A DNA stretch of 64,000 nucleotides from Chloroflexota bacterium. GTDB lineage: Bacteria > Chloroflexota > UBA5177. The DNA lies in NCBI GenBank assembly GCA_036752825.1, contig DAIORV010000001.1, forward strand, positions 42,843 through 106,842, read 5' to 3'. Below the pieces are notes generated by a model, which saw only the letters and a list, made by a program, of their open reading frames with translations, had not been told where the DNA came from and did no database searches. This document shows positions 3,200 to 57,266 of this stretch, one piece after another (position 1 is the first letter of the stretch; each line of letters begins with the position of its first letter). The position numbers were made by a program, and so were the translations under genes.

Positions 3200-3309
3200 C
3201 GCCTCCCGTCCTTGCGCAACTCTACCAAGTAGAAAGTCGTCCGGGCTGTAACCTTATTACCATTGGGCAGCCAAGCGCGTGGCGGCGAGAAGCCGCCGAG
3301 GAGCGAAAA

Positions 3310-3945: not shown

Positions 3946-3954
3946 TTGGAACCC

Positions 3955-3983
3955 TTGTAACTTCGCCAACAAGTGGCTACACT
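3955..3983 (+). promoter_or_regulatory. Candidate sigma70-type promoter for the 4035 gene (TTGTAA-17 nt-TACACT)
   Basis: -35 TTGTAA at 3955-3960, a 17-nt spacer, and -10 TACACT at 3978-3983, lying between the translin-like stop (3945) and the next start. Confidence 0.4.
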
Positions 3984-4034
3984 CGGACACGAGAATCCAA
4001 GGCGTCCGATTTTGAGTCCACGGAGGTCCCGTCT

Positions 4035-4682
4035 TTGGTGGCTGCCGGAGATTTCCAGGGAAGACGGGCTCCCTACGCGCCCATATCCGCTCTGGAGAAA
4101 TTCTTCGAGCGAATACGCGACCGTCAAACTCCGGATCGTGTCGATCACAAGTTTCTACGCAAGCTCGGTGTCGCCCACAACAACGAGTACTCGCTTCTCA
4201 GTGCGCTCAAGTTTCTCGGTATCTTGGATGAGTATGGAACTCCGACGACTTCGTACCGAAGTCTCCAAACCACTGATCAGTTCAAGGAAGCCCTTTGGAA
4301 CTTGGTCCAGCGCGCTTACAAGCCAGTTTTCGAAGCAGGCGCCAATACTTGGTCTACCGCAGAGCTGGTCGACTTCTTTCGAGTGAACAGTTCCGCTTCA
4401 CAGGCCAAGAATGCGGCGCGCTTTTTTCGAGCCGTCTGCAACCTCGCCGATCACGAAGCATCCCCTGCGGTGGGCAGCCTGCCGCAGGCCGAGACGAGGG
4501 CGCTCCGGCCAGACGCGGGCCGGCAGCCACCTTCCCATTCAGTTTCCAGACAGATGTTGCCCGCCAAAGCGGCCCTACTCGAAAAGCTACCGGCGGCGCA
4601 ACCTGGCTGGTCAGCGGATGAATATCTTCAGATCTGCGATCGGTTTATCGAGATGCTGCGACATCTCGATGAACCGGCCTAA
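4035..4682 (+). CDS. Hypothetical protein (possibly DUF5343-like); partner of the translin-like gene
   Basis: GGAGG at 4023-4027 sits 7 nt before TTG 4035 (a GTG is at 4038). No motif I can assign with confidence. The Pro/Ala/Gln-rich middle segment looks disordered. Confidence 0.55.
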   Translation: MVAAGDFQGRRAPYAPISALEKFFERIRDRQTPDRVDHKFLRKLGVAHNNEYSLLSALKFLGILDEYGTPTTSYRSLQTTDQFKEALWNLVQRAYKPVFEAGANTWSTAELVDFFRVNSSASQAKNAARFFRAVCNLADHEASPAVGSLPQAETRALRPDAGRQPPSHSVSRQMLPAKAALLEKLPAAQPGWSADEYLQICDRFIEMLRHLDEPA

Positions 4683-4929
4683 GCGCCCGCAGCCGGCTGC
4701 CTAGACAACGAAAAGACGCCCGGCAATCGCTCCCTTGACCAGTGGGCAACCCGGTCGAGACAGCGACTGCCGGACGTCCTTGGACCACAATTCCAAGAGC
4801 CGCAGACGACCTCTTCCCTCGACACCATCATAGTACAAGGCGCACAAGAAGTCAAACAAGAAATGCAAGAACCTTGGACAGCGCGGCTGCGCTAAGCTAT
4901 GTACTGTTTGAGCCCGAGATCCTTCTTCT

Positions 4930-16597: not shown

Positions 16598-16671
16598 TGC
16601 GGGATCGTCTAACGGTAGGACGCTTGACTCTGGATCAAGAAGTTGGGGTTCGAATCCCTGTCCCGCAGCCA
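16598..16671 (+). tRNA. tRNA-Gln (anticodon CUG)
   Basis: Hand-folded cloverleaf. Acceptor TGCGGGA/TCCCGCA with the U1-A72 pair typical of bacterial tRNA-Gln. D-arm GTCTAACGGTAGGAC. Anticodon stem CTTGA/TCAAG with loop CT-CTG-GA. T-arm TGGGGTTCGAATCCCTG. Discriminator G and an encoded CCA. Confidence 0.85.
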
Positions 16672-31195: not shown

Positions 31196-31211
31196 TAGAA
31201 CTTATGTTCTA
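31196..31211. promoter_or_regulatory. LexA/SOS box of the Gram-positive Cheo type (tAGAAC-N4-GTTCTa) inside a TTGACA promoter
   Basis: Palindrome TAGAACTTATGTTCTA with GAAC at 31198-31201 and GTTC at 31206-31209. -35 TTGACA lies at 31185-31190, so the box sits in the spacer/-10 region. It is 47 nt upstream of imuB and divergent to the epimerase operon. Confidence 0.7.
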
Positions 31212-31257: not shown

Positions 31258-32817
31258 GTGATTCTCTTTCTGCGTATCGTCCCCGGCCTCTCGGTTGCTC
31301 TGCTGGAACGAGATCGACCCGAGCTTCGATCTCGGCCTCTGGTCATTGGGCAATCTGGTGGACGCGGGTTAGTGCTCGAAGCAAATACCTCCGCCCAAGG
31401 CTTTGGTATTCAACCCGGAATAACGCTCGCTCAGGCTCGTCATCACTGTCCTGATGCACTCGTTCTTATGATCGATTTCGCCCGCTGCTCCGCCGTCTGG
31501 GAGGAGATATGCGTCGTACTTCGCAGCTTCACTCCCCTCGTCCAGCCGCTCGAGCCAGGATCGGCCGTCTGCGACTTTTCCGGCTGCGAGCGGCATTGGG
31601 GAGATGCATGGAGCACTGCGCGCAGCGTCGCCGGTGCAATTTTCGGAGATACCGGAATCAAGCCGTGGATCGGCATCGGTGCTAATCGTCTGGTTGCCGA
31701 GCTTGCCTCTGTTGTGGCCGATACCGATACCGATGGCATAGCAGTGGTTGAGCAGGGAGAAGAGCAGGCCTTCCTGGCGGATCTTCCGCTTACCTCGCTA
31801 CCCGAGGTCGACTCAAACCTAACGCTCACCTTCCAGGTATTGGGACTTGCCACCGCTGGCCAGTTTGCTGCCCTGCCCACCTCATCCGTGAAGAATCGCT
31901 TCGGCGCATTGGGGGAGCGGCTCCATCGCTATGCCCGAGGGATAGATTTTCGCCCTATCGTTCCACCACCCCTCAGCCCGGCTATTAGCGCCCGCTACGA
32001 ATGTGAAGAAGGAACTCCGGAGGAGGCTCTCGACGGCCTTCGAAAGCTCGCTCTTCGAGTGTCTTCCGAGCTTCAACAAAAGAGGCTCGAAGGGAAGGTC
32101 ATTACGGTGCGGTTGTTCTGGGCTCATGCCTCAAATGGAATGACCCTGCTACCGAAAAATGGAGCTCGATCTCTCCCTGGCCGAGTCCCACCACTTCTTT
32201 CGAACGGTGATGAGAATGATCGACCTCCTCAAACCGAGCCTCCCCCTCCACCTGGAGACGCGCTGCTTTCGAGCGGGATTAAAGCCAATATCCCTATCCC
32301 CTACCGTATTCACTCCTATGCTCTTCCTCAACCAAACATTGACATGGGAAAACCACTTTTGACCAAACAAACCCATTCCCCCTCGTCTCGAGATGAAAAT
32401 GCTCTTTCGACCAAACAAACCCATTTCCAACCAGGCACTTTGACCGCCATGGTCCGGACGCCTATCAGTGCCGAAGCTCCATTGGCTGAGCGGGCGCAGC
32501 GACTTCTCCTTGGGCGGTTCGCGAAACGAAAGGATGAGCGGTCTCTTCGACTGGAGGCACTCGAGCTGGAGGTCTCTGAGTTCGCTCAGCCTGAACAGAT
32601 CAGCTTTGCTGAGCTGAATCGGATTAGTGACACCGGCGGGCTCGCTGGTATGAGTCCCGAGCGGCGGAGTGCGCTACTCCATGGAGATGAAACCTGGGCT
32701 GCTCGGTACGGGCACACTGCCTTCCGTCATGTGGCATCAATTGATCCGACCAATGTGGTGACGGAACGGCGAGTGCGTTGGGCTGAAGGTTTGAAGATGG
32801 CTCGGGGACGAGTATGA
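31258..32817 (+). CDS. imuB: ImuB: catalytically inactive Y-family polymerase-like protein of the SOS mutasome
   Basis: DinB-like N-terminal fold, but the catalytic acidic residues are replaced ('FLRIVPGLSVALLE' in place of DxD; 'VCDFSG' in place of the catalytic DE). Long Pro-rich C-terminal extension. GTG start 7 nt after GGAGG. Sits directly upstream of dnaE2 and downstream of the LexA box. Confidence 0.8.
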   Translation: MILFLRIVPGLSVALLERDRPELRSRPLVIGQSGGRGLVLEANTSAQGFGIQPGITLAQARHHCPDALVLMIDFARCSAVWEEICVVLRSFTPLVQPLEPGSAVCDFSGCERHWGDAWSTARSVAGAIFGDTGIKPWIGIGANRLVAELASVVADTDTDGIAVVEQGEEQAFLADLPLTSLPEVDSNLTLTFQVLGLATAGQFAALPTSSVKNRFGALGERLHRYARGIDFRPIVPPPLSPAISARYECEEGTPEEALDGLRKLALRVSSELQQKRLEGKVITVRLFWAHASNGMTLLPKNGARSLPGRVPPLLSNGDENDRPPQTEPPPPPGDALLSSGIKANIPIPYRIHSYALPQPNIDMGKPLLTKQTHSPSSRDENALSTKQTHFQPGTLTAMVRTPISAEAPLAERAQRLLLGRFAKRKDERSLRLEALELEVSEFAQPEQISFAELNRISDTGGLAGMSPERRSALLHGDETWAARYGHTAFRHVASIDPTNVVTERRVRWAEGLKMARGRV

Positions 32818-33053
32818 CAAAGCTGTACTTCGAGCCGATCACCGTGAAGTGTGAAGATGGCCGTCCACGTTCCTTCATATGGCGAAGAACGCTTCATCCC
32901 ATCAGTAGTGTCCTTAAACGTTGGATTGTTTGTGTTGACTGGTGGCGGCAGGAGATTTCCCGCCAGTACTACAAAGTCGAGTGCGAAAACCTGGGCGTCT
33001 ACGAGATCTATCGAGAACACGATAGGTGGTTTCTCGAGCGGCTCTATGACTGA
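32814..33053 (+). CDS. 79-aa Trp/Tyr-rich hypothetical protein encoded between imuB and dnaE2
   Basis: Its ATG overlaps the imuB stop (ATGA, 32814-32817). Its TGA overlaps the dnaE2 ATG (TGATG, 33051-33055). Translation: MTKLYFEPITVKCEDGRPRSFIWRRTLHPISSVLKRWIVCVDWWRQEISRQYYKVECENLGVYEIYREHDRWFLERLYD. Confidence 0.6.
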   Translation: MTKLYFEPITVKCEDGRPRSFIWRRTLHPISSVLKRWIVCVDWWRQEISRQYYKVECENLGVYEIYREHDRWFLERLYD

Positions 33054-36000
33054 TGATCCATCTCCACACACACAGCAACTTCAGCTTCCTGGACGGAGCT
33101 TCGGCGCCTGATCGTCTGGTAAAGCGGGCCGCCGAGCTGGAAATGCCGGCCCTCGCCTTGACTGACCATCACGGACTTTACGGTGCCGTACGCTTTCTTC
33201 ACGCGGCAAAAGCTGCAGGCATAAAACCCATCATCGGTGCCGAGATCTGCCTGCGTTCGGAGAATGGAGAAGGCCAGGCAAAGCCACATCTGGTGCTCCT
33301 CGCTAGAAATAGGGTGGGCTATGCAAATCTCTGCCGCATCATCACCAAGGCGCAGCTCGACTATCAGGATGATCCTCAGATCACCCTCACCGATCTTGCT
33401 CCGTATCACGAAGGCCTTATTGCGCTCTCTGGTTGCCGGCGAGGTGAGCTTCCGCGTGCCCTCTTAGCCGGCCATAGAGAGGAGGCGCTGTCAATCGCAC
33501 GGCGCTATGCGGACCTCTTTGGTGACCGCTTCTTGATTGAGCTCGAGCATCACCTTCTCCCCGACGATGACGCGCTGGTTGATGCGCTGCTCGACCTAGC
33601 AAGGAAGATCGGCCTACGTGCCGTCCTCGCTAACGATGTTCACTATGCCTACCCGCACGAATACCGTCTGCGTGACGTCATGGCTTGTATTCAGACACGA
33701 ACCACGCTCGATGAATGGACTGATATCCGTCATGCCAACGGCGAGTACTACCTGAAGTCCCAGCAGGAGATGCGCGAAGCTTTTGCTCTCCCCGCAAACA
33801 TCTTCGATGCCTGTCTTGCCACCACCCAAGAGATCGCCGACGATTGCAATCTTGAGCTGCTGGCCGTTTCCTGCCGTCCGCCGGACTATCCCGTACCTAA
33901 AGGTGAAACTGCTTTCTCACACCTCTACACCCTCTGTCAGGAAGGAGTGCGCAAGCTCTATCACCCGCTCACACCAGAAGTTAGCAATCAGCTCGCTTAC
34001 GAGCTTTCCATCATCGAGCAGATGGGGCTCGCCTCCTTCTTTCTCTGCGTCTGGGACATCATTCGCTTCTCCCGGGAACACGGCATACGATGCGCCGGAC
34101 GGGGTTCGGCCGCCGATTCAATCGTGGCCTATATTCTCGGCATCACCGCGGTCGATCCCCTGGCCAACAATCTGCTTTTCGAGCGCTTCCTCAATCCCGG
34201 ACGTGTCGGCATGCCGGATGTGGACATCGACTTCGACTCACGGCGGCGCGACGAGGTCATCGAGTACATACAGGATCGCTACACCACTGAGCACGCCGCC
34301 ATGGTGGCGAACGTCATCACCTATCGTTCTCGCTCTGCCTTCCGAGACGTGGCCAAGGCGATGGGCTTCGCTCCCTCGCTGGTCGATACTCTCGCCTCGA
34401 AGCTCAGCTATCGAGGTGTCAAAGAGATGCGTGAAGAGATGGTTTTGGCAGGTGATGTACAGCCGGCACTCGAGGGAGCCGTCGACGAGAACGCGTCGAA
34501 AGCTCAGACGCCGCTCGAGCAGGTGATCGAGCTCTGCGAGCAGCTCGACGGCTATCCTCGCCATCTCTCACTTCATAACGGTGGCATGCTCATTACTGCC
34601 GAGCCACTGATAGATGTGGTCCCGCTCGAATACGCTACCAGTGGCGTCCGCGTCTGTCAGTTCAACAAAGATGATGTCGAGATGCTCGGCCTGATCAAGT
34701 TCGACATCCTCGGTCTGCGAACCCTTTCCATCCTTGACGAAGCCGTGCAAACCATTAAAGAGGTGCGCGGAATCGATCTTCCGATCGACAACATTCCGCT
34801 CGACGATCCTGCCTGTTACGACCTGGCATGCTCGTCCAAGACCATCGGCGTCTTTCAGATCGAGAGCCCGGGCCAATGGGCGCTTCTCGCTCGCGCTCAA
34901 CCTCGCACGTTCGGCGATCTCATCATTCAGATTGCTCTCTTCCGGCCCGGTCCGTTACAGGGAGGGATGGTCGATCCATACATCGAAAGGCGTCTAGGCC
35001 GGGAGGCGGTCACATACTCCCATCCCAGCCTCGAGAACTGCTTGCGAGACACACTTGGTGTGGTGATCTTCCAGGAACAAGTGCTGCAGGTTGCGCATGA
35101 CTTTGCAGGCCTTTCCTACGCTGATGCCGACGGCCTGCGCCGCGCCATGTCCCACTACCGTACCGACACCGAGATGAATGTCTGCCGCGACATCTTCGTG
35201 GCAAGCGCAGTCGAGCTCGGGCGCGACCGGGAGCTCTCGGAACGCATGTACGAAGCCATTTCGTACTTCTCCGGTTACGGCTTCTGCCGGTCGCATGCCG
35301 CTGCCTTCGCCAAGACCGTCTACCAGACCCTTTTCCTCAAGGTCTATTACCCCGCAGAGTTCCTGGCCGCTATCCTCTCCAACGAGCCCTGCTGCTATTA
35401 CCCGACGCAAACCGTCATTGAAGAGGCAAGACGGTGGGGAATACGAGTTCTTCCCGTTGACATAAATAGAAGTACCGCTCGCTATACCGTCGAACACGGC
35501 GCGATTCGTATGGGAATCATGCAGGTAAAGGGACTCACCGAGGACTCAGCACTGGCGGTCGTCGAGGCGCGTGGGAAACGCCCATTCGCTACCTTCTCTG
35601 ACTTCTGGGCACGTACTTCGGTGGATCGTGATGTCGCTGAGGCCCTGATAAGTGTTGGTGCTTTTGACTCTTTGGGGATGAATCGGAGAGCGTTGCTCTG
35701 GGGACTGGAGGAAGTGATCCGTACCGTCGTTCGTAAGCGTGATCTGCAGTCCCGAATGAAGATCGATGTGCGGGCGGGCGCGCCAGATCTTCCGCCTCTT
35801 ACCGATCTCGATGTCGCTGGACTTGATTACACACTGCAAGGTGCGTCCGCTCGTTACAGCGTCATGTCCTTCTATCGCCGATCGCTGGCTCGGGCCAACG
35901 TCCTTTCGATAGGACAGATCGAAGGTAAACCGTCAGGCACCACGGTTCGCACTGGGGGCATCGTCATCAGCCGCCAGAGGCCACCCACTGCCAAAGGCAT

Positions 36001-36268
36001 GACCTTTCTCGTCCTGGCCGACGAGGAAGGAGAGCTCCCGGTGGCCATCTACCCCAATATCTACGAGAGCCATCGCCTCATTGTGAACGGCAGCTCATCC
36101 CTGGTCATCGAGGGGATAGTCGAGCGAGAGCGTTACGTCACGTCTCTCCTGGCCACACGCCTCTGGCGTCTCAACGATGTCGCCACACTCGATACCCGTC
36201 CTTCCATCCAGCGCGCCAAGCAGGCCAAGCTCTTCGACTCGGTCGCCACCAAGTACATACCGGGATGA
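33053..36268 (+). CDS. dnaE2: Error-prone DNA polymerase DnaE2 (ImuC)
   Basis: Second PolIII-alpha paralogue (1071 aa), with PHP motif 'MIHLHTHSNFSFLDG' and 'GVFQIESPG'. The shorter length and the LexA-box/imuB context mark it as DnaE2. Confidence 0.85.
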   Translation: MIHLHTHSNFSFLDGASAPDRLVKRAAELEMPALALTDHHGLYGAVRFLHAAKAAGIKPIIGAEICLRSENGEGQAKPHLVLLARNRVGYANLCRIITKAQLDYQDDPQITLTDLAPYHEGLIALSGCRRGELPRALLAGHREEALSIARRYADLFGDRFLIELEHHLLPDDDALVDALLDLARKIGLRAVLANDVHYAYPHEYRLRDVMACIQTRTTLDEWTDIRHANGEYYLKSQQEMREAFALPANIFDACLATTQEIADDCNLELLAVSCRPPDYPVPKGETAFSHLYTLCQEGVRKLYHPLTPEVSNQLAYELSIIEQMGLASFFLCVWDIIRFSREHGIRCAGRGSAADSIVAYILGITAVDPLANNLLFERFLNPGRVGMPDVDIDFDSRRRDEVIEYIQDRYTTEHAAMVANVITYRSRSAFRDVAKAMGFAPSLVDTLASKLSYRGVKEMREEMVLAGDVQPALEGAVDENASKAQTPLEQVIELCEQLDGYPRHLSLHNGGMLITAEPLIDVVPLEYATSGVRVCQFNKDDVEMLGLIKFDILGLRTLSILDEAVQTIKEVRGIDLPIDNIPLDDPACYDLACSSKTIGVFQIESPGQWALLARAQPRTFGDLIIQIALFRPGPLQGGMVDPYIERRLGREAVTYSHPSLENCLRDTLGVVIFQEQVLQVAHDFAGLSYADADGLRRAMSHYRTDTEMNVCRDIFVASAVELGRDRELSERMYEAISYFSGYGFCRSHAAAFAKTVYQTLFLKVYYPAEFLAAILSNEPCCYYPTQTVIEEARRWGIRVLPVDINRSTARYTVEHGAIRMGIMQVKGLTEDSALAVVEARGKRPFATFSDFWARTSVDRDVAEALISVGAFDSLGMNRRALLWGLEEVIRTVVRKRDLQSRMKIDVRAGAPDLPPLTDLDVAGLDYTLQGASARYSVMSFYRRSLARANVLSIGQIEGKPSGTTVRTGGIVISRQRPPTAKGMTFLVLADEEGELPVAIYPNIYESHRLIVNGSSSLVIEGIVERERYVTSLLATRLWRLNDVATLDTRPSIQRAKQAKLFDSVATKYIPG

Positions 36269-38729: not shown

Positions 38730-40085
38730 GTGTTCCTCGTCCCGCGTGGCCACCGGAGAATTCTTAAGATTCCGTTCCGACGCGGCACAGGACTCGCCTT
38801 TCTGCTCGTGTCGGGCTTGCTGCCGGTTCACGCCTCGCACGCGGCGCCTTCCGTGCAGCATTTTTGGCTTGCCAGTCCCAATGGCCCTCGACGGGCTGCG
38901 TGCGTGAGCGAGAGCAAGTCCCCCCGAGTGGAGCTCTATGCCTGCGGTACCGCGGCCGTGCCTCCTGATCAGGCGAAATCACTCGTCTCCGATCTCGAGC
39001 ATCGCATCATTCCCACCGATCTCCGAGAATTCGGCCACCCACGTAATTTCCGGAAGGTCGTTGTCCTGCTCAGCCCGCTCGATTCCATGACGCTCGGATA
39101 CTTCGACGAAAACGATATCCTTCCGTCCGATCCGGCGCACTCCAACCATGCAAACGTCATCTATGTACGCCCGCCGTACCTAATGCCGGATGTCTCTGAG
39201 ATGGCTGATGTCGAGGAAGCGGCGGCGCATGAGCTGCAGCATTTGATCAACTTTCGCATTCGCGTGTTGGACAGGCATCTTCCCCCTCAGGAGTCGTGGC
39301 TTAATGAAGGTCTTGCTTTCTATGCGCAGATGGCCAATGGCTTCTGGACACAGAGGGATGTCCTGAAGGTCAAGGCCGCTGCATCCGATCCGGGCTGGTC
39401 CATAAACAGTCTTGTCGAGGGCGATCGCTTCCTAGTTCGGCACGCCCGTGTCGCATACGGCCGCGCCGGACTTTTTGTTTGCGACCTGGTCCGCCGCTAT
39501 GGCTCCTCCATCGCGCGAGCGGTCATCCGATCTCCGGGTTCCGGGCTCGAGGAGATCGATCGCGCCCTCCGGGCTCGCCGGCCTTCGGCCAGCGTGCGCT
39601 CGGCGTTCGCCCAGTGGGGAGCGGATTTGGTTACTTCCGGGGCCACGCCACAACGATGGGTCGGACGCCTCGGCCTGCAACACATCCAACAGGCGTCTCT
39701 GGTCTCTGCCGTGACGATTCGTTCTGACGCGCCTCCCTGGTCCTCGCCGTCCCTTCGAGTACGTCCATGGTCTCAATCCTTCGTGACACTTAGATCGAGC
39801 GGCTCGGGCGCCCTTCGCGTCACACTGAAAACAAAAAGCTCCTCACTCTTCGTGGCTCTTGTCGCTACTTCAAGCGAGGATCTGGCGCGGCCGCGAATCG
39901 CATGGTTTAGACCCAATGTCAAGGGAATTGCCGGCGCTCAGATCGGCAACTTCGGCGAGACGTACGATAGCGCTACCCTGGCAGCTTCCAATGCCCCAGC
40001 TCTTGGATCGAATCAAGTACCAGCACTTTTTATGGCGAGCGCCTCGGTTACTCCAAGCGGCGAGAGGCAGCCTACCGGCCACTGA
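38730..40085 (+). CDS. Secreted gluzincin (MA-clan, M1/M61-like) zinc metallopeptidase with a twin-arginine-like signal
   Basis: 'HELQHLINF...x18...WLNEGLAFYA' matches the spacing of HExxH...WLNEGFA in M1-type gluzincins, and no GAMEN-like motif is seen. GTG 38730 gives an N-terminus '..HRRILKIPFRRGTGLAFLLVSGLLPVHASHA|AP' (RRxxLK, an h-region, and an AxA cleavage site). Ser/Ala-rich C-terminal tail. Confidence 0.6.
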   Translation: MFLVPRGHRRILKIPFRRGTGLAFLLVSGLLPVHASHAAPSVQHFWLASPNGPRRAACVSESKSPRVELYACGTAAVPPDQAKSLVSDLEHRIIPTDLREFGHPRNFRKVVVLLSPLDSMTLGYFDENDILPSDPAHSNHANVIYVRPPYLMPDVSEMADVEEAAAHELQHLINFRIRVLDRHLPPQESWLNEGLAFYAQMANGFWTQRDVLKVKAAASDPGWSINSLVEGDRFLVRHARVAYGRAGLFVCDLVRRYGSSIARAVIRSPGSGLEEIDRALRARRPSASVRSAFAQWGADLVTSGATPQRWVGRLGLQHIQQASLVSAVTIRSDAPPWSSPSLRVRPWSQSFVTLRSSGSGALRVTLKTKSSSLFVALVATSSEDLARPRIAWFRPNVKGIAGAQIGNFGETYDSATLAASNAPALGSNQVPALFMASASVTPSGERQPTGH

Positions 40086-40965
40086 GACGTTCTTTCGCAG
40101 GGCGCGCTTCCAGATCAAGCGCGTAGACAATCATCTCGGCGGCATCTGGATTGCGGAATCCGAGAGATTCGAGAATATCGGCAACGTCCGGCTCAAGTCT
40201 GAGGACTGCCGAAACGCGGGTCATGTGCGCGCTCGCTGCTCTCGCCAATAGCGTCTTCACCAGCCCGACTACATCCTCTTTATGTCCCGAGAGGTAGCCG
40301 AAGCGCAGCACCGGCCGTACTGGACGGCTGGTTGCAATAGCCATTCCCTTTGACGGACCAGCCTTCGACATGAGAACCGAGTGATCCGCGAGCAGGAGCG
40401 CGAGCCTGCGACGATCCAGCGTGTAAGCCGTCCAGCCTTCGCTGTAGAGGGCTGGCACCCCGCGGTGACCCGACACGACATCCCACACGTCGTCGATGTC
40501 CGCGGGTAGGGCAAGGGTGTAGCCGTCTGAAGCCGTGACGGAGGCCGGCTCGACAGCCAACGAACGCATTCGCTCCACCTCCAGAAAGCCCGCATTTTCG
40601 GCAAGTCGATTGCTGGAGGGATTTGCCCCGTAAGTCGAAAGCCTCATGCGTCGACTGCCGGCCTGGCGCGCCCAGGATATTCCCTCGGTAAGCAGCGCAC
40701 TGCCAATTCCCCTGCTCTGCAGATCTTCGCGTACTCGTATGCCCTCAGCCCACGCGGTCCCGTCGGACTGAATCTCAACGTGCATCAATCCGCACACAAT
40801 GCCAGCGCGTATGGCCACGGTCAGGTGTCCGCTTCCGTCCGCCAGCCACTTGTCCCACACGAAGGGAACGTAGTCGCTGCCCTCCCATACATTTCGGGTG
40901 ATTTCCAGCATGGCGCTTGTGTCTGCGGGCGCCGCTTGCCGGACGACTATGCGCTCCGATGCCAT
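40072..40965 (-). CDS. GNAT-family N-acetyltransferase fused to a C-terminal domain of unknown function
   Basis: Acetyl-CoA motif 'VREDLQSRGIGSALL' in the N-terminal half; no assignable motif in the C-terminal ~150 aa. Start is probably ATG 40965 ('MASERIVVRQ'). Confidence 0.6.
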   Translation of the reverse strand: MASERIVVRQAAPADTSAMLEITRNVWEGSDYVPFVWDKWLADGSGHLTVAIRAGIVCGLMHVEIQSDGTAWAEGIRVREDLQSRGIGSALLTEGISWARQAGSRRMRLSTYGANPSSNRLAENAGFLEVERMRSLAVEPASVTASDGYTLALPADIDDVWDVVSGHRGVPALYSEGWTAYTLDRRRLALLLADHSVLMSKAGPSKGMAIATSRPVRPVLRFGYLSGHKEDVVGLVKTLLARAASAHMTRVSAVLRLEPDVADILESLGFRNPDAAEMIVYALDLEARPAKERLSGR

Positions 40966-41106
40966 CTCACAGAGTACCGTCCCCGCATTGCCGGACAGGT
41001 GTCCGCGCCCGTACAATGCCTGCAGCAGAGAACGCTCTGCGCGAAGGAGCGGCGCGTCGGATTGAGAGACCGGTTCCACGAAAAGCAGCTAGCAGCACAA
41101 AAACAC

Positions 41107-41133
41107 GGAGGCCTCTGGGCCTCCTTTTTTCTT
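41107..41133 (+). terminator. Terminator-like hairpin and U-tract in the pyrB leader (candidate attenuator)
   Basis: GGAGGCC-tctg-GGCCTCC at 41107-41124, then TTTTTTCTT at 41125-41133, ending 2 nt before the GAGGAG RBS of pyrB. The reverse strand also carries a T-run after the stem, so the structure is bidirectional. Confidence 0.45.
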
Positions 41134-41147
41134 GTGAGGAGCGACGG

Positions 41148-42125
41148 TTGAGATTGCATCACGTTGTAGAGGCGCAGGACTTCAATCGAGGGATGCTGGA
41201 AGAGCTCTTCTCGACCGCTCGCGTCATGGAAAAGGTCGTGGAAGACGGGGGTAGCAAACTTCTCGATGGGTGCATCATGGCCTCTCTGTTCTACGAGGAA
41301 AGCACCCGAACCCGTTTCTCTTTCGAGACAGCCATGCTTCGCCTGGGTGGCAGCGTCATATCGACGGAGAACGCGCGACAATTCTCGTCGGTGTCCAAAG
41401 GGGAGACCCTGGAAGACACCATACGGATCATGAACGGATATGCCGATGTCATCGTCATGCGCCATTACGAGAGTGGTGCAGCTCGACGAGCCGCTGACAT
41501 TTCGAGAGTTCCAATCGTAAATGCGGGCGATGGCACTGGTCAGCATCCCACGCAGGCCTTTCTCGATCTCTACACCATCGAGAAAGAGCTCGGCGGCATC
41601 GACAACCTCACTATCGCGGTTGTCGGGGACCTGGCAAACGGTCGTACGGTGCGTTCACTTTGTTACTTGCTGGCCAAGTACCGCAATGTTCGGGTCTACA
41701 TGGTGGCTCCGGAGGTGGTACGCATGCGCGAAGACATAAAGGATTACCTCTCGCGGCACGACGTTAGGTGGACCGAGGAATCCGACCTGCGGGAAGTCGT
41801 TGGAGAGGTCGATGTTCTCTACCAAACCAGAATTCAGAAAGAACGATTTGGCGACCGCTCCGAGGACTACCTGTCCGCTCGAGGAGTGTACGTGGTCGAT
41901 CGGGAGCTGCTGAAGACACTCCGCAAGAACGCTATCGTGATGCACCCGCTTCCCAGAGTGGATGAGATAACGGTTGATGTCGATGGGGACCCGCGAGCCG
42001 CATACTTCCGTCAAGCCCAAAACGGAGTGTTCATTCGCATGGCGCTGCTTGCCGGATGCCTTGGTCGCGACCTCGTGCCTGCCACCGTGTCCTCTTCCAC
42101 CCCCATCAACGGACACACTTCATGA
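41148..42125 (+). CDS. pyrB: Aspartate carbamoyltransferase catalytic subunit
   Basis: 'STRTR', 'HPTQAFLD', 'HPLPRVDEI'. TTG 41148 (or 41154) follows GAGGAG. The ORF-track start 40917 extends into the divergent region. No pyrI or pyrC is adjacent. Confidence 0.8.
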   Translation: MRLHHVVEAQDFNRGMLEELFSTARVMEKVVEDGGSKLLDGCIMASLFYEESTRTRFSFETAMLRLGGSVISTENARQFSSVSKGETLEDTIRIMNGYADVIVMRHYESGAARRAADISRVPIVNAGDGTGQHPTQAFLDLYTIEKELGGIDNLTIAVVGDLANGRTVRSLCYLLAKYRNVRVYMVAPEVVRMREDIKDYLSRHDVRWTEESDLREVVGEVDVLYQTRIQKERFGDRSEDYLSARGVYVVDRELLKTLRKNAIVMHPLPRVDEITVDVDGDPRAAYFRQAQNGVFIRMALLAGCLGRDLVPATVSSSTPINGHTS

Positions 42126-42187
42126 CATCGCACTCTGGCTGCAATTACGATTAGTCCTCACGTGCTGAGCTAGAAAGGCGACCCGAC

Positions 42188-44470
42188 GTGAACGTCGACC
42201 AGGTCGTCGAGCGTTTCCTCACCGACCCTCAGATAGCCGTAAATGTCGCCGCCTACCGCGAGCTTCCCGCATGCGATGCGCACTTCGAGGATTTTCCGGC
42301 CCAAATAGACGGGAGGATCGTGGAGGCTTTTCGTAGGGGAGGCATTTCCCGTCTCTATTCCCATCAACTAGAGGCAATCGACGCCGTGCTCGCCGGGAAG
42401 AACGTGGCGGTGGTGACTCCAACCGCGTCGGGAAAGACGCTCTGCTACAACGTCCCGGTACTCAACTCGATAGTCGCCGACAGTTCTGCCAGGGCGCTGT
42501 ATCTTTTCCCGACCAAGGCTCTCTCTCAGGATCAAGTGAGCGAGCTGCACGACGTTGTTACGGCGCTTGGCGTGGACATCAAAACATTCACGTACGACGG
42601 GGACACGCCGCAAACTGCCCGCAAAGCCATCCGCTCGGCGGGCCACATCGTGGTCACCAATCCTGACATGCTTCACACGGGCATCCTGCCGCACCACACG
42701 CGTTGGATCCGCCTTTTCGAAAACTTACGCTTCGTCGTTGTGGACGAGCTTCATGTCTATCGCGGAGTGTTTGGAAGTCACGTCACAAATGTACTTCGAC
42801 GGCTCAAGCGAATCTGCAAGTATTACGGCTCGGATCCGCAGTTCATCTGCTGCTCGGCCACGATCGCCAACCCACGGGAGCTTGCAGAACGGATCATTGA
42901 ACGGCCGATTGAGCTCGTCGACAGTAATGGAGCCCCGCGGGGCAAGAAACACGTGCTCATCTACAATCCGCCGGTCGTGAACCGCGAGCTGGGACTTCGT
43001 GGAAGCTCTCGGTTTGCAGCCCGAGACCTCGCCGCCGAACTCGTAACAAATGGCATCCAGACCTTGGTTTTCACGCGCAGCCGGACTGGCGTAGAGATCC
43101 TGCTCGGCTATCTACGCGAACGTCTCGGCCATCGCGAACGCGACACGATTCGTGGCTACCGGAGTGGGTATCTTCCGCTGCAGCGCCGTGAGATTGAGCG
43201 GGGCCTGAGGGACGGATCGGTGCGTGGCGTCGTGGCCACGAACGCCCTCGAGCTTGGTATCGATATCGGTGCCCTCGATGCCTGTGTAATCACGGGCTTC
43301 CCGGGCACGATTGCCAGCACCTGGCAGCAGATGGGCCGCGCCGGCAGGCGTAACGATTCTTCGGTCGCCATTCTCGTTGCCAGCAGCAACGCTCTGGATC
43401 AATTTCTTGCCACTCATCCTGACTACTTCTTTGATCGGTCCCCCGAATCGGGCCTGGTCGACCCCAACAACCTGATCATCCTGGTCAATCACATCAAGTG
43501 CGCCGCTTTCGAGCTTCCATTTAAGGATGGCGAGCAGTTTGGACCGGAGGGAACTGCTGAGATTCTGCGATTCCTCGAGCAGAACGAAGTAGTTCATCAC
43601 GCGGACGGAGTATGGCATTGGATGTCGGACTCTTTCCCGGCGCAGGAGATCAGTCTTCGTACGGCAGCGGCCGACAACGTGGTGATCGTCGATCAGGGGC
43701 CGCCCGCTCGGGTGGTCGGTGAAATTGATAGGGTCTCCGCTCCCAGCATGGTTCACGAGGAAGCGATCTACATCCATGAGGGACAGCAGTACCAGGTGGA
43801 GCGGCTAGACGTAGAGGAGAAAAAGGCGTTTGTTCGACTCGTCGATGTCGATTACTACACCGACGCCGAGCTGGCCGTGAAGGTAAACGTCCTCGAGGTC
43901 TTCGACGACGCTGACGGCCGAACTCACGGCGAAGTGTCGGTCACGTATCTGCCGACTATCTTCAAGAAGATCAAACTTGGTACGCATGAAAACGTGGGGT
44001 GGGGACAGATTCACCTCGCTGAGGACACGTTCCACACCACCGCCTACTGGTTGCGTTTGCCGGTCCATGTCGCCGAGACCATGCCTCGCATCGAGCTGGA
44101 ATGTGGGCTGCTCGGCATGGCAACGGTGCTCGGTCAAGTGGCCCCACTATTCCTCATGTGCGATCCGTCCGACATTGCAGTCTGGCCCGAGATCAAGTCG
44201 ACATTCACCAATGCGCCGACCGTGTATCTTTACGATCGGGTGCCTGGCGGCATCGGATTTAGCAAGCGACTGTTTCACATGCACGGGCAGCTTCTTGGCA
44301 ACGCCGCTCACATGATATCCCGATGCCCCTGCGAGTACGGATGCCCTTCGTGCGTAGGGCCGCAACATAGTCGGGAGCCCAACTCCAAAATGGCGACTCT
44401 GAGACTCATTGGAGTCATGCTCGATGAGGCACGGGTTCCGGTCCTGCAAGAGAAACCGAGGATGGCATGA
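42188..44470 (+). CDS. mrfA: DEAD/DEAH-box helicase with a C-terminal DUF1998 zinc-binding domain (B. subtilis MrfA/YprA-like)
   Basis: Walker A 'VTPTASGKTLCYN', DExH 'VVVDELHVYRG', helicase C motifs, and a terminal Cys cluster 'CPCEYGCPSCVGP' (DUF1998). Confidence 0.75.
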   Translation: MNVDQVVERFLTDPQIAVNVAAYRELPACDAHFEDFPAQIDGRIVEAFRRGGISRLYSHQLEAIDAVLAGKNVAVVTPTASGKTLCYNVPVLNSIVADSSARALYLFPTKALSQDQVSELHDVVTALGVDIKTFTYDGDTPQTARKAIRSAGHIVVTNPDMLHTGILPHHTRWIRLFENLRFVVVDELHVYRGVFGSHVTNVLRRLKRICKYYGSDPQFICCSATIANPRELAERIIERPIELVDSNGAPRGKKHVLIYNPPVVNRELGLRGSSRFAARDLAAELVTNGIQTLVFTRSRTGVEILLGYLRERLGHRERDTIRGYRSGYLPLQRREIERGLRDGSVRGVVATNALELGIDIGALDACVITGFPGTIASTWQQMGRAGRRNDSSVAILVASSNALDQFLATHPDYFFDRSPESGLVDPNNLIILVNHIKCAAFELPFKDGEQFGPEGTAEILRFLEQNEVVHHADGVWHWMSDSFPAQEISLRTAAADNVVIVDQGPPARVVGEIDRVSAPSMVHEEAIYIHEGQQYQVERLDVEEKKAFVRLVDVDYYTDAELAVKVNVLEVFDDADGRTHGEVSVTYLPTIFKKIKLGTHENVGWGQIHLAEDTFHTTAYWLRLPVHVAETMPRIELECGLLGMATVLGQVAPLFLMCDPSDIAVWPEIKSTFTNAPTVYLYDRVPGGIGFSKRLFHMHGQLLGNAAHMISRCPCEYGCPSCVGPQHSREPNSKMATLRLIGVMLDEARVPVLQEKPRMA

Positions 44471-45735
44471 GCCTCGAGGAAAGGCTTCAAAGCGTACGGA
44501 AGCACATGGCGCTCGCGCAAGCCGCAACGGTTGCTCCCCCGAGGCGATCGCCTATCCCTCACGACTGGACGGGCCGCCTGGCCGGCAATGTCGAGTTCTT
44601 GGGCGCGGCGGGCTCTTTCTCGGTCACCTCGTCGTACGAGTCCGGCCACACTCACGGGCAACAGCGATTTTCGGACCTCACGACCGTCACCGGCAACGCG
44701 TTCTCGGTCGTATGTAGGGACCCGGAGCTCTCGTACGCCAACCTTCAAGGTGCTGTGTTTCTCGATACGGAGACAACCGGGCTCGGAATGGGAACCGGGA
44801 CCTACGTCTTTCTCGTCGGAGCGGGCTATATGGAGGGGGACCGTTTCATCGTCAAGCAGTTCTTTCTGGACGCTCCAGGTGATGAGCGTGTGCTTCTCGA
44901 AGCGCTTGGCAGTTTCCTCTCCAGGTTCCCGGTCCTCATTACTTTCAACGGCAAGGCCTTCGATTGGCCGCTGCTGGAAAGCAGATTTAGGTTGCATCGG
45001 CGGTCCGTTCCATTCGACGATCCGCCCCACGTCGATCTCCTCCATCCAGCTCGCCGCCTCTGGAAAAGGCGCCTGGACAGTTGCGCGCTGTCGTCGCTCG
45101 AAACTCAGATTCTTGGGGTCCGTCGAACAATCGAGGACGTGCCGGGGTGGGAGATACCATTCCGGTACTTCGGGTATCAAAGGTCTGGAGATGGGTCTCA
45201 GCTCGAGGGCGTCTTTTACCACAATCTGGTCGACATACTGTCCCTCGCGTCGCTTGCCCTGCACATCGATCGCGTCGTCGCTGATCCCAACTGCGGACTG
45301 GTCGAGCACGCGACCGACTTCTTCTGCATAGGCAAGGTCTACGAGGTCAGTGGAGACGGCGACATGGCCGTCTATTGTTATGAGCGAGCTCTCAGGCTCG
45401 GTGTGCCTGATGAGCTGCGACCGGATTGCTTCCTGCGGCTGGGAACCCTGCACAAACGCCAGAGGCGATGGGACGCCGCGATTCAGGCGTGGGAGTCGCT
45501 GCTGGACGAGGGAGGTCGGGCGGGGCTGGTGGCTCGCGTAGAGCTTGCGAAGTTTTACGAGCACGTCGAACGCGATTACGTGACGGCTATCGATCATGTT
45601 CAGCACGCGCTGGTGCTCGCAGAGCTCTTCGATAGCCCATGGCCTGATGCCAATCTACGGGACCTGGAGCACCGATTGAGCAGACTGTTCAACCGCTCGA
45701 TTCGCGCTCGAGACTGGGCGGGGACATATGGTTGA
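44467..45735 (+). CDS. mrfB: DEDD/RNase-T-like exonuclease with a C-terminal TPR domain (MrfB/YprB-like)
   Basis: ATGA overlap with mrfA. Exo motif I 'FLDTETTGLG' and motif II 'ITFNGKAFDWPLL'. Helical TPR-like tail. Confidence 0.65.
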   Translation: MSLEERLQSVRKHMALAQAATVAPPRRSPIPHDWTGRLAGNVEFLGAAGSFSVTSSYESGHTHGQQRFSDLTTVTGNAFSVVCRDPELSYANLQGAVFLDTETTGLGMGTGTYVFLVGAGYMEGDRFIVKQFFLDAPGDERVLLEALGSFLSRFPVLITFNGKAFDWPLLESRFRLHRRSVPFDDPPHVDLLHPARRLWKRRLDSCALSSLETQILGVRRTIEDVPGWEIPFRYFGYQRSGDGSQLEGVFYHNLVDILSLASLALHIDRVVADPNCGLVEHATDFFCIGKVYEVSGDGDMAVYCYERALRLGVPDELRPDCFLRLGTLHKRQRRWDAAIQAWESLLDEGGRAGLVARVELAKFYEHVERDYVTAIDHVQHALVLAELFDSPWPDANLRDLEHRLSRLFNRSIRARDWAGTYG

Positions 45736-45782
45736 GCACGCCTGCCGCGAACGCGGCGAACTCTGAGGCCGGGAGGATTGGC

Positions 45783-46667
45783 GTGCACGTTCGAAAGGCA
45801 GTAATCCCTGCTGCGGGCTTTGGCACGCGGCTGTTGCCTCTCACAAAAACTGTTCCAAAGGAGATGCTGCCGCTGGCCGGCAAGCCGGTCATCCAATACA
45901 TTGTCGAGGAGGCCGTCGCGTCCGGGATCGAAGAGATCATCCTGGTGACGAGTCCTAACAAGAAGGCCCTCGAGGATTATTTCGACAGCAACTTCGAGCT
46001 CGAGCATCAACTGGAGGCGACTGGGAAGGGATCTGTCGCGCAGCAGCTCCGGACGATTCGAGACATGGCTGCCTTTACGTACGTCCGGCAAAAGCAGCCC
46101 CTTGGAAACGGACACGCCGTTCTCGCCGCCAGGCATGCCGTGGGTAATGAGCCCTTCGCCGTCCTCTGGGGCGATGACGTCCTCGTGGGGCGTCCTCCAG
46201 TCCTAAAGCAGCTGATCCAGGTCGCGGAGAGAAACGACGCACCAGTAGTCGGGGTGCGCCAGGTTGCTGAGAATGATTTCGAGAAGTACGGAATGCTCGA
46301 GGTTGAGTTAATTGACGGTCGCCTTAGTCGAGCGATCTCGGTCATCGAGAAACCCAGTCGCACGGAAGCTCCGTCAGATCTCGCCCAAATCGGAGGATTC
46401 GTGCTAACGCCAGATATATTCGACCTTCTTGCATCCGCCGAGGTCGGGCCTAGCGGCGAAATCTACCTGGCGGATGCCCTGATCAAGCTCATGCAGATTC
46501 GAACGGTGTACGCTTACGCCTTTGAGGGCACGCGGTACGATGCGGGGAACCACATGGATTACTTGAAGGCATCGTTGGAGCTGGCGCTGGCCGATCCCTC
46601 CATCGGTCCTCCCTTCAGGGAGTATCTTGCAAGTCTCGGATGGCGAGGCGTCAACGGGCCTTTGTGA
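45783..46667 (+). CDS. galU: UTP--glucose-1-phosphate uridylyltransferase
   Basis: 'KAVIPAAGFGTRLLPLTKTVPKEMLPLAGKPVIQYIVEEA' and 'GIEEIILVT'. GTG 45783 lies 6 nt after GGGAGG; the ORF-track TTG 45732 overlaps mrfB. Confidence 0.85.
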   Translation: MHVRKAVIPAAGFGTRLLPLTKTVPKEMLPLAGKPVIQYIVEEAVASGIEEIILVTSPNKKALEDYFDSNFELEHQLEATGKGSVAQQLRTIRDMAAFTYVRQKQPLGNGHAVLAARHAVGNEPFAVLWGDDVLVGRPPVLKQLIQVAERNDAPVVGVRQVAENDFEKYGMLEVELIDGRLSRAISVIEKPSRTEAPSDLAQIGGFVLTPDIFDLLASAEVGPSGEIYLADALIKLMQIRTVYAYAFEGTRYDAGNHMDYLKASLELALADPSIGPPFREYLASLGWRGVNGPL

Positions 46668-53825: not shown

Positions 53826-56800
53826 ATGACACTAACTGTACTTACGTCCGTGCTCTCTCGCCTCAAAGAGATCGAGAAATTGAGGGGCGTGTCAACCTTC
53901 ACAGTCGTCTCAGGACTGCTTGGCGCGGCCCGACCGGCGGTCGCAGCGGCGCTGATCGATCGGCGCCAGGTGCTCGTCGTCACCGCGCACTCTCAGGCGG
54001 CTCTCGACTTTGCCCAAGAGCTTCATCGCTGGACAGAGGAGACAGTCGGACTCTTCCCGGCCACCGAAGCACTTCCATACGAGCGGGTACGCGTGGACCG
54101 ATCAGTCCTCGCGGCGCGCGAGAGCGTCGTGCACGACCTGGGCACGGGAGTCTGTCGCGTTGTTGTCGCTCCCGTCAGAGCCCTGATGCAACCAGTCGAG
54201 GGTCGAAACCCGCTGGAGCTATCCGTCTCAAGAGTCCGGGCCGGCTCGTCGACTCGGCCCGAGGAGCTCCTGCGGCAATGGGTATCGATGGGGTACGTGG
54301 AAACACGGGTGGTCGACGAACCAGGCTCCTTTGCTCGGCGCGGAGGAGTTCTGGACATCTTTCCGGCGGGCCGAGACTTGCCGGTGCGCATAGATCTCTT
54401 TGGAAACGACGTCGAATCTCTCCGCGAATTCGATCCGGCGTCACAGCGATCTCTCGTCACGGTCGCCGAGGTCGAGATCCTGCCGCTCGCTCAGCTACAA
54501 GACGATATCCGCACGTCTGTCCGGTCGGAGCTTCAGGGTATCGACGCGTCCAGATTGACGGCTGAGGCGGAGACGCGGTGGCAGCAAGACGTGGCTGCGC
54601 TTGAGCATGCCTCAGGTCTCGACGAGCTAGCCATCTTCTCCCCCTACCTGCTGGCTGAGCCTTGTAGCTTCGTCGATCATTTCGCAGCCGATGCCCTCGT
54701 GCTGGTCGACGATGCTCCGGAAACCTGGTCGACGCTTGCGTCCTTGCAGATCCAAGCCGAGGATGTGCAGCGAGGTATGGAGGAAGCGGGCACGTTGCCG
54801 ATAGGCCTAAAAGCCGCAGTAATCGCTGCAGACTCGGTCAAGTTAAGCGTCGAATCTCGACACCTGATCAGCATCACGCCCGGAACGACATCTCAAGACG
54901 CCGTTGACCTATCAGGACTGTTCACTCCCGCGCGGCTCTACGCCGGCAGAGTTCGCGACTTTGTCCGGGCTTCCGCGCAAGGCGCCCGGGTAAGAACTGT
55001 TGTTGGAACGCAGCAGGTGGAGCGAGTTCGTGAGCTGCTCACGGAGGAGGGGATAGCTGTCGGCGTCTCCGGTCCAAATGCAAATGAGCTAGCACTCGGC
55101 GTAACGCTCGTCTCGAGCAGCTCGGTCCAGGGTTGGACTCTACCTCGCGAAGAAATTGCTTTTCTGACCGACCACGAAATCTTCGGCCGCTCCCTGACTC
55201 GACCCGTTCCCAGGAAAAAGCGGCAGGCGCGCGAGGCCTTTTTCTTCGATTACTCCCCGGGTGACTTTGTCGTGCATCTCGAACACGGAATTGGAAGCTT
55301 CGAAGGCGTTACCCGCATGTCAGTGGAGGGCGCGGAACGCGAATACGCCATTGTCCAGTACGCGGGCAAAGATCGCGTCTACGTACCCACGGATCAACTG
55401 GAACGACTGACCAAGTACGTCGGAAGCGGAGATGCAGCTCCCCACATCAGCAAGCTGGGAGGCGGGGAGTGGCAGCGCGCGCGCGCTCGGGCGAAGGCCG
55501 CCGCCGACGACATCGCCCGAGAGCTGATCGAGCTCTATGCCAAGCGCCGCACGCGGCCCGCCCATGCCTTCCCCTCCGACCAACCATGGCAGCACGAGCT
55601 GGAGGCGACGTTTTCCTTCGAAGAGACAGCTGATCAGGTGCAGGCCATTCGCGATGTCAAGGCGGACATGGAAGAGCCCCATCCCATGGATCGTTTGGTC
55701 TGCGCCGATGTCGGCTACGGAAAGACGGAGGTCGCCGTACGTGCCGCCTTCAAGGCGGTGATGGATGGCAAGCAGGTGGCTATGCTCGTTCCCACGACCA
55801 TCCTGGCCCAGCAGCACTTTGAGACGTTCGCCGATCGATACGGTCCGTTTCCCGTCTCAGTCGAGGTCTTGAGCCGTTTCCGATCCCCAGCTCAGCAACG
55901 TGAAGTGCTGCGGCGACTGGCGTCAGGGGAGGTCGACATTGTGATCGGTACTCATCGACTTTTGCAGACGGACGTTCTCTTCAAGAATCTCGGGCTTCTG
56001 ATCATCGACGAGGAGCAGCGTTTTGGTGTCAAGCACAAGGAGCAGTTGAAGAGGTTCAGGGAATCCATTGACGTGCTCACGCTCACAGCCACCCCAATCC
56101 CACGGACTCTACACTCTGGGCTCGTAGGCATAAGAGAGATCAGCGTCATCGAGACGCCGCCAGAGGGCCGCCTTCCAATCAGGACGTATTTGCAGCCGTT
56201 CGACGAGCGTCTGATTCGCGAGGCGGTTTTACGGGAGCTCGATAGGGACGGTCAGGTCTATTTCGTCCACAACAAAGTTGCGACCATCGATAGCATGGCT
56301 GAGCGCGTGCGACGCCTCGTCCCCGAAGCCCGGGTTGTTGTGGCTCACGGACAGATGGATGAAGGTTTGCTCGAGGGGGTCATGTTGTCCTTCGCCCACG
56401 GCGAGGCCGACGTTCTACTTTGCAGCACCATCATCGAGAACGGATTGGACATTCCAAACGTAAATACAATCGTCGTCAACAATGCACATCGACTGGGATT
56501 GACTCAGCTTTATCAGCTGCGAGGCCGGGTGGGGCGCAGCGCCAACCAGGCCTACGCGTATCTCCTATATCCGCTGGATTCACACCTCACACAGGATGCT
56601 TCGCGCCGCATGGAGGCGGTGTTCGAAGCGCAGGACCTGGGTGCCGGATTTAGCATCGCCATGAAGGACCTTGAGATTAGGGGAACGGGCAACCTTTTAG
56701 GTGCGGAGCAGAGCGGCCACGCTGCGTCCATTGGCTTTGACCTATATACGAGGATGATTGGGGACGCCGTTGAGCGGATGCGGGGAGTTCCGGTCGAGGA

Positions 56801-57266
56801 ACCCCCCTCCATTTCGATCAATCTTCCGCTGACCATGCTTCTGCCGGAGGAATACGTCGGAAGCGAGTCTGAACGGCTTACCTTGTATCGCCGCCTGGCA
56901 AACGTGGCAACGCTTTCGGAGATCGCGGACCTGGAAGACGAGATGCGGGACAGATTTGGCGCGCTACCGTTGCCGGTGCAGAACCTCATAGCCGTCGTAA
57001 GGCTGAAACTGAAAGCACGGGACGCTAGAATATCGTCCATCACTTTGGATCGTGAGGCTTTGACCGTGCGCTCCCAGCCGGGCGCGATATACGACCGAGT
57101 GTCTCTGTACCGAACCTATGGCACAGATGCCAAAATTTCAAATGCGCTACTACGGATTCCGCGCCGTAGGTTGAAGGAAGACTGGATGAGCGCTATTAGC
57201 GAGATGCTGGATTGCACGCTGGCTCTGCAAGACACTCTTGCCAAACCAGAGCCCGTTCCTGTATGA
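53826..57266 (+). CDS. mfd: Transcription-repair coupling factor Mfd
   Basis: 1146 aa. UvrB-homology N-terminus, RNAP-interaction domain, and a superfamily-2 translocase ('GYGKTEVAVRAAF', 'LIIDEEQRFG', TRG motif 'LRGRVGRS'). Confidence 0.95.
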   Translation: MTLTVLTSVLSRLKEIEKLRGVSTFTVVSGLLGAARPAVAAALIDRRQVLVVTAHSQAALDFAQELHRWTEETVGLFPATEALPYERVRVDRSVLAARESVVHDLGTGVCRVVVAPVRALMQPVEGRNPLELSVSRVRAGSSTRPEELLRQWVSMGYVETRVVDEPGSFARRGGVLDIFPAGRDLPVRIDLFGNDVESLREFDPASQRSLVTVAEVEILPLAQLQDDIRTSVRSELQGIDASRLTAEAETRWQQDVAALEHASGLDELAIFSPYLLAEPCSFVDHFAADALVLVDDAPETWSTLASLQIQAEDVQRGMEEAGTLPIGLKAAVIAADSVKLSVESRHLISITPGTTSQDAVDLSGLFTPARLYAGRVRDFVRASAQGARVRTVVGTQQVERVRELLTEEGIAVGVSGPNANELALGVTLVSSSSVQGWTLPREEIAFLTDHEIFGRSLTRPVPRKKRQAREAFFFDYSPGDFVVHLEHGIGSFEGVTRMSVEGAEREYAIVQYAGKDRVYVPTDQLERLTKYVGSGDAAPHISKLGGGEWQRARARAKAAADDIARELIELYAKRRTRPAHAFPSDQPWQHELEATFSFEETADQVQAIRDVKADMEEPHPMDRLVCADVGYGKTEVAVRAAFKAVMDGKQVAMLVPTTILAQQHFETFADRYGPFPVSVEVLSRFRSPAQQREVLRRLASGEVDIVIGTHRLLQTDVLFKNLGLLIIDEEQRFGVKHKEQLKRFRESIDVLTLTATPIPRTLHSGLVGIREISVIETPPEGRLPIRTYLQPFDERLIREAVLRELDRDGQVYFVHNKVATIDSMAERVRRLVPEARVVVAHGQMDEGLLEGVMLSFAHGEADVLLCSTIIENGLDIPNVNTIVVNNAHRLGLTQLYQLRGRVGRSANQAYAYLLYPLDSHLTQDASRRMEAVFEAQDLGAGFSIAMKDLEIRGTGNLLGAEQSGHAASIGFDLYTRMIGDAVERMRGVPVEEPPSISINLPLTMLLPEEYVGSESERLTLYRRLANVATLSEIADLEDEMRDRFGALPLPVQNLIAVVRLKLKARDARISSITLDREALTVRSQPGAIYDRVSLYRTYGTDAKISNALLRIPRRRLKEDWMSAISEMLDCTLALQDTLAKPEPVPV

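Follow-up and report, generated by a model that had tools for sequence, protein, structure and literature searches.

The closest described system to the gene pair reported here is the MrfAB (YprAB) pathway of Bacillus subtilis. In B. subtilis, MrfA and MrfB interact with each other and are epistatic; their action does not depend on UvrABC, and the protection that they give is specific to mono-adducts or intrastrand crosslinks of mitomycin C (10.1101/426304). In the 3'-5' helicase MrfA, the MZB domain rotates, thereby closing the OB-CON canopy over the loading strand, and the metal cluster is made up of four closely spaced Zn ligands (Roske et al., PMC7797055). MrfB is a Mg-dependent 3'-5' exonuclease which appears to be auto-inhibited until it meets DNA, and its residues D107, E109, L113 (the Leu wedge), F171 (a stacking Phe), D172, H258 and D262 matter by mutagenesis (PMC11194089). 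Here, we describe two genes at positions 42188-45735 of a 64,000-nt stretch of DNA from a Chloroflexota bacterium (assembly GCA_036752825.1, contig DAIORV010000001.1, positions 42,843 to 106,842); the whole stretch is called the window in the following. An initial annotation, made without database searches, had matched the two genes to mrfA and mrfB and had called the pathway little characterised outside Bacillus. The latter is fair as far as function is concerned, but publications on the family exist that document its broad distribution among phyla and include two crystal structures (10.1101/426304; PMC7797055; PMC11194089; 10.1101/2025.09.15.676423). From the comparisons described below, we assign a probability of roughly 0.85 to the reading that the genes encode a Chloroflexota version of MrfAB, in which a 3'-5' superfamily 2 (SF2) helicase would be paired with a Mg2+-dependent DEDDh exonuclease with TPR domain and would work by the same mechanism as in Bacillus.

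The locus consists of two open reading frames (ORFs) on the plus strand. ORF1, designated mrfA (yprA), extends from 42188 to 44470, starts with GTG and encodes a predicted SF2 DExH 3'-5' DNA helicase of 760 amino acids (aa). A Shine-Dalgarno-like AGAAAGG, read from the sequence at 42172..42178 (plus strand), lies 9 nt 5' of the GTG; this motif, given as AGAAGGC in the comparison, the position of the start and the first codons (V/L-N-V/I-D-Q) are kept in the related contigs L081-L083. ORF2, designated mrfB (yprB), extends from 44467 to 45735, starts with ATG and encodes a predicted DEDDh 3'-5' exonuclease of 422 aa with a C-terminal TPR domain. The letters at the junction are ...AGG ATG GCA TGA GCC..., with the ATG of mrfB at 44467-44469 and the TGA of mrfA at 44468-44470, and the ATGA overlap of start and stop codon (44467..44470, plus strand) that had been noted before could be read directly from them. 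The overlap is likely to couple the translation of mrfA and mrfB. The same 4-nt overlap is found in L082 and L083, and a 2-nt gap in L081. An antisense ORF of 432 aa (44308-45606, minus strand) was set aside as a spurious high-GC ORF, the homology of the sense strand being strong.

ORF1 matched the Pfam families DEAD (123 bits), Helicase_C (57 bits) and WHD_HRQ1 (PF22982, 42.6 bits), all above the curated cut-offs, and the MZB/DUF1998 domain (PF09369) was found at residues 646-723 with 73.3 bits (cut-off 24.2), covering positions 3-80 of the 80 profile positions. The top sequence match in the PDB was MrfA of B. subtilis (6ZNP/6ZNQ/6ZNS) with an E-value of 8e-271 and 903 bits, whereas the second-ranked entry, 5V9X, reached only 75 bits. 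The alignment to 6ZNP was a single collinear HMMER domain that joined residues 11-727 of the query to residues 12-734 of the chain with small gaps only, and 389 of the 716 positions aligned with B. subtilis MrfA were identical (54%). The helicase motifs are intact (I, GKT82; II, DELH186; III, SAT223; VI, QQMGRAGR380). Furthermore, the cysteines C713, C715, C719 and C722 (RCPCEYGCPSC; 44324..44353, plus strand), which make up the predicted Zn-binding motif of the MZB/DUF1998 domain, align with HCPCHDGCPSC of B. subtilis MrfA, and the pattern CxCx3CxxC is common to the 16 syntenic MrfA homologs parsed. The proposal of a DExH helicase with a C-terminal DUF1998 four-cysteine module was thus borne out. 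Between RecA2 and MZB, a WH/OB/CON array is indicated by the collinearity with the solved structure and by the WHD_HRQ1 match, and the architecture read from the sequence is NTR-RecA1-RecA2-WH-OB-CON-MZB. Like B. subtilis MrfA (749-751 aa), the Chloroflexota protein combines this domain set with motifs I, II, III and VI and the CxCx3CxxC motif in a chain of similar length; it differs in its GTG start and in its last ~30 residues, which are outside the aligned region.

The second protein gave a similar picture. The Pfam family RNase_H_2, which has a DnaQ-like fold, matched residues 97-264 of ORF2 with 132.8 bits. The top sequence match in the PDB was the exonuclease core of MrfB (8UN9; E-value 5e-43, 150 bits), with 43% identity over 211 aligned residues, and the remaining matches were consensus TPR proteins aligned to residues 282-392. 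According to the alignment to 8UN9, the DnaQ-like core (residues 97-264; 44755..45258, plus strand) carries the DEDDh residues D100, E102, D166, H252 and D256, the Leu wedge L106 and the phenylalanine F165, i.e. the counterparts of the residues named above for B. subtilis MrfB. All seven are unchanged across 30 aligned homologs with 40-87% identity to ORF2. TPR matches were found at residues 285-345, and of the TPR models only TPR_2 passed its cut-off (29.2 versus 27 bits), the others being just below. Both profile searches that had been proposed as a check, for DUF1998 and for the DEDDh exonuclease, therefore found their targets, and a DEDD exonuclease with a TPR tail, as initially described, is what the data indicate.

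An AlphaFold2 (AF2) model of ORF2 was built on the 30-homolog alignment and had a mean confidence score (pLDDT) of 88.5 and a predicted TM score (pTM) of 0.84. Residues 1-30 are poorly ordered and are followed by an alpha/beta exonuclease core. Seven helices with pLDDT > 85 make up the C-terminal TPR domain (residues ~282-413; 45310..45705, plus strand), which was also recognised by Pfam TPR_2 and Foldseek. In a Foldseek search of the PDB, 8UN9 ranked first (E-value 1e-9, TM score 0.69 on the target, root mean square deviation 4.9 Å); the remaining gap between model and crystal may partly reflect the inactive conformation in the 8UN9 crystal (PMC11194089). TPR proteins came next (CTPR3, 1NA0, with a TM score of 0.82 on the target), ahead of exonuclease domains from Pol epsilon and Pol alpha. 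B. subtilis MrfB has the same structural neighbours, namely TPR proteins and the exonuclease domains of B-family polymerases (PMC11194089), and the features of the MrfB core, a DnaQ fold with a long alpha-C and closeness to these polymerase domains, were found by Foldseek in the Chloroflexota protein as well. In common with B. subtilis MrfB, ORF2 has the DEDDh residues, the Leu wedge, the Phe, an N-terminal extension before beta-1 and a gene directly downstream of mrfA, and its tail is a TPR of the three-repeat type with a capping helix. Unlike the core, the TPR tail and the N-terminus have diverged too far to be matched to Bacillus by sequence. The named database homologs are from Chloroflexota metagenome-assembled genomes (MAGs), and an identical protein is already present in ENA on a 53.9-kb contig. 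Public records label such proteins as "ribonuclease H-like domain-containing protein" or "uncharacterized protein YprB".

As judged by these alignments, all residues needed for the helicase and exonuclease activities are present in the two proteins. The mechanism that we propose follows from the homology to the B. subtilis proteins. MrfA would load on single-stranded DNA and translocate in 3'-5' direction, with its Zn-binding MZB "drum" closing the OB-CON canopy over the strand. It would also bind MrfB, which would then digest the damaged strand, once unwound, starting at a 3' end or a nick. In this way, the pair would remove bulky adducts of guanine or intrastrand crosslinks such as those formed by mitomycin C, without a need for UvrABC.

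The MrfB alignment was scanned against the GTDB species representatives, which gave 80 loci (L001-L080) with MrfB-like genes. These span Chloroflexota, Acidobacteriota, Firmicutes, Atribacterota, KSB1 and others. With MrfA of the window as tblastn query, 17 of the 80 loci, from at least four phyla, turned out to have an MrfA homolog no more than 6 kb away, and 16 of these 17 homologs are directly upstream and on the same strand. When the 1,355 neighbouring ORFs of the 80 loci were clustered, MrfA was the sole neighbour that recurred across phyla (a cluster of 16 loci). In the same clustering, no other conserved partner of MrfB was found in the loci devoid of MrfA, the remaining clusters being small or made up of spurious antisense ORFs. 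The pair is syntenic not only in these 17 distant loci but also in the three closest relatives examined, which agrees with the synteny expected for an MrfAB operon; the linkage is far from universal.

In the window, mrfA and mrfB are preceded by mnmG (minus strand), a peptidase-MA-like gene, a GNAT gene (minus strand) and pyrB, and followed by galU, a DUF3048 gene, a glycerate kinase gene (glxK), ftsY and ffh. Thus, unlike its B. subtilis counterpart, the Chloroflexota mrfA follows pyrB and is not located in the Bacillus ypr neighbourhood. The order pyrB-mrfA-mrfB-galU-DUF3048-glxK-ftsY-ffh is kept in L081-L083, the three closest relatives examined, whose MrfB proteins are 87%, 59% and 57% identical to that of the window. 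The G+C content is flat (0.57-0.62 across 36-52 kb), and MrfB-like matches were found in only 3 of 72,556 plasmids, one of them a 1.4-Mb replicon, and in 1 of 50,697 phage records, where the match was partial. The conserved context, the uniform G+C content and the near-absence from plasmids and phages together point to a vertically inherited, chromosomal housekeeping repair pair and not to a mobile element or a defence island. Horizontal acquisition, which was also considered, was not supported by the flat G+C content and the almost complete lack of matches in plasmids and phages.

An alternative reading is an anti-phage defence module of the YprA/DUF1998 helicase family, akin to DISARM, Dpd, Druantia or ARMADA, in which MrfB would be the effector nuclease. 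Indeed, the PADLOC models BrxHI, SngC, DruE, DpdF/J and DrmA matched ORF1, but these matches cover the RecA core only (~residues 33-400), whereas the best full-length match is the repair helicase MrfA. ORF1 shares the SF2 RecA core with the defence YprA helicases (DrmA of DISARM, DpdJ/F, DruE, BrxHI) and DUF1998 with some of them, but has neither insertions in the OB region nor a fused nuclease, and defence partner genes are lacking: no methyltransferase, PLD or other defence partner is adjacent, the neighbours being pyrB, galU, DUF3048, glycerate kinase, ftsY and ffh. Unlike a defence island, this neighbourhood persists in relatives whose MrfB is as little as 57% identical, and the uniform G+C content and the near-absence of MrfB homologs from plasmids and phages argue in the same direction. 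Moreover, the published tree of the YprA family places MrfAB on the repair, non-defence branch (10.1101/2025.09.15.676423). The core-only PADLOC matches, the housekeeping neighbours and the conserved context led us to reject a function in defence, which we consider highly improbable.

Other observations do weigh against equating the pair with MrfAB of Bacillus. The best-scoring NCBIfam helicase model, TIGR03817, which describes the actinobacterial SftH type, aligned with residues 24-747 of ORF1 and reached 646 bits. This is below the cut-off of 874 bits and, therefore, ORF1 resembles MrfA of the Bacillus type more than it does SftH: it shares the YprA-family architecture and a full-length model alignment with SftH of Mycobacterium smegmatis but is not a member of the TIGR03817 equivalog. 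SftH-type genes form a "YprA only" group without MrfB (10.1101/2025.09.15.676423). For ORF2, the NCBIfam search matched no model, NCBIfam being without a model for MrfB. In 63 of the 80 loci, mostly from Anaerolineales and Acidobacteriota, a full-length MrfB-like gene with exonuclease and TPR domain has no MrfA within 6 kb, so that MrfB evidently exists away from mrfA and perhaps works without MrfA. No enzyme is known to make the initial incision, even in Bacillus. Finally, complementation of the B. subtilis mutants succeeded with the homologs of close relatives only and failed with those of Pseudomonas aeruginosa (10.1101/426304). Since complementation was limited to close relatives, the lesion specificity is uncertain here and is the weakest step of the proposed mechanism; the mitomycin specificity that we infer for the Chloroflexota pair is not transferable from Bacillus with confidence.

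The two proteins could, therefore, be orthologs of MrfAB with a different job in Chloroflexota, acting on other bulky or oxidative lesions, at stalled forks, on R-loops or in a crosslink processing like that of Hrq1 and not specifically on mitomycin damage. The authors of the complementation study suggested adaptation of the distant homologs to other uses (10.1101/426304), and the frequent separation of MrfB-like genes from mrfA in Chloroflexota and Acidobacteriota, as well as the insertion of an HNH nuclease into some Anaerolineae MrfA proteins, which reveals functional plasticity in this clade, would be in line with it. However, the catalytic and structural signatures are all as in Bacillus, the identity of MrfA is 54%, and the sequence gives no pointer to another substrate. 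We regard a different job as quite improbable and keep to MrfAB with the mechanism of Bacillus as the preferred reading.

The HNH endonuclease domain (PF01844) was observed in MrfA homologs of 829-860 aa that are encoded next to MrfB in Anaerolineae and Chloroflexia MAGs (L022, positions 3221-5743, and L015, L021, L024, L027 and L034). It is inserted just before MZB, in L022 at residues 673-718 with an E-value of 3e-11. The term "HNH" does not occur in the text of the 2025 preprint that surveyed the YprA family (10.1101/2025.09.15.676423). Such an insertion could supply the incision activity to the MrfAB pathway. A broader reading can be built on this: MrfAB of Chloroflexota would be a constitutive, SOS-independent backup excision system, maybe co-transcribed with pyrB, with a lesion spectrum unlike the mitomycin role in Bacillus, in a clade in which the pathway has been modularly rewired, with MrfB standing alone in most loci of Anaerolineae and Acidobacteriota and with HNH-bearing MrfA as a candidate for incision. 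We consider this unlikely as a whole; if true, the modular rewiring would hint at where the pathway gets its missing incision activity. The HNH-bearing MrfA of Anaerolineae and the frequent stand-alone MrfB are more interesting than the operon of the window, which is a correctly recognised but ordinary member of a known and structurally characterised system. Its analysis extends the characterised two-protein MrfAB repair pathway to an uncultivated Chloroflexota lineage and is of value for annotation, MrfB not being covered by NCBIfam models, but opens no new question.

The initial annotation had pointed to a nearby SOS mutasome and had seen no LexA box upstream of mrfA. The latter held true: no GAAC-N4-GTTC motif with up to two mismatches was found in 42040-42200, where the best sites had three mismatches in eight positions, and a scan allowing mismatches did not find a LexA box in the gap between mrfB and galU either. 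Three perfect GAAC-N4-GTTC sites are present in the window. One of them, the perfect LexA/Cheo box GAACTTATGTTC at 31198-31209, lies ~11 kb upstream of mrfA and just 5' of an imuB-like gene, between a TTGACA hexamer and TAAT. The imuB-like Y-family gene (31258-32817) forms a two-gene mutasome cassette with dnaE2 (33053-36268), the product of which matched the NCBIfam model NF004225 "error-prone DNA polymerase" with 989 bits (cut-off 939). The perfect box in front of the imuB-like gene and dnaE2 indicates that the GAAC-N4-GTTC motif is valid in this genome. The mutasome is, therefore, real, but its link to mrfAB is just loose proximity: the cassette is located 6-11 kb upstream, with mnmG, the peptidase-like gene, the GNAT gene and pyrB in between, not all of them on the same strand. 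An imuA-like gene was not seen at the cassette, and the gene upstream of it is divergent and belongs to the MR/MLE enolase family.

Because the mismatch-tolerant scan did not reveal a LexA box, SOS control of mrfAB was rejected as a candidate; the genes are probably not SOS-controlled and most likely expressed constitutively. A weak sigma-70-like site is present 5' of mrfA at 42122-42151. In a terminator scan, neither the interval from pyrB to mrfA nor that from mrfB to galU showed a convincing terminator.

The starts of the two flanking genes deserve a comment. The galU ORF extends from 45732 to 46667, but its start is probably the GTG at 45783, which has a GGGAGGA in front of it. The alignment to the GalU profile sets in at residue 20 of the ORF in its longest form, two residues past this GTG, which makes the TTG at 45732 less likely, and the TTGA overlap with the stop codon of mrfB is probably not real. 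With the GTG start, the gap between mrfB and galU would be ~47 nt long and without a terminator. The longest pyrB ORF (40917-42125, 402 aa) starts with TTG and overlaps the divergent GNAT gene (40072-41079). It extends ~80 residues beyond the profile match and the orthologs, which have 311-326 aa, and translation probably begins near 41150. Further genes for genome maintenance in the window are mfd, encoding the transcription-repair coupling factor (53826-57266), and the replicative dnaE (4930-8469). An Rfam scan of the window revealed nothing near mrfAB; its sole match was the one tRNA of the window, at 16598-16668.

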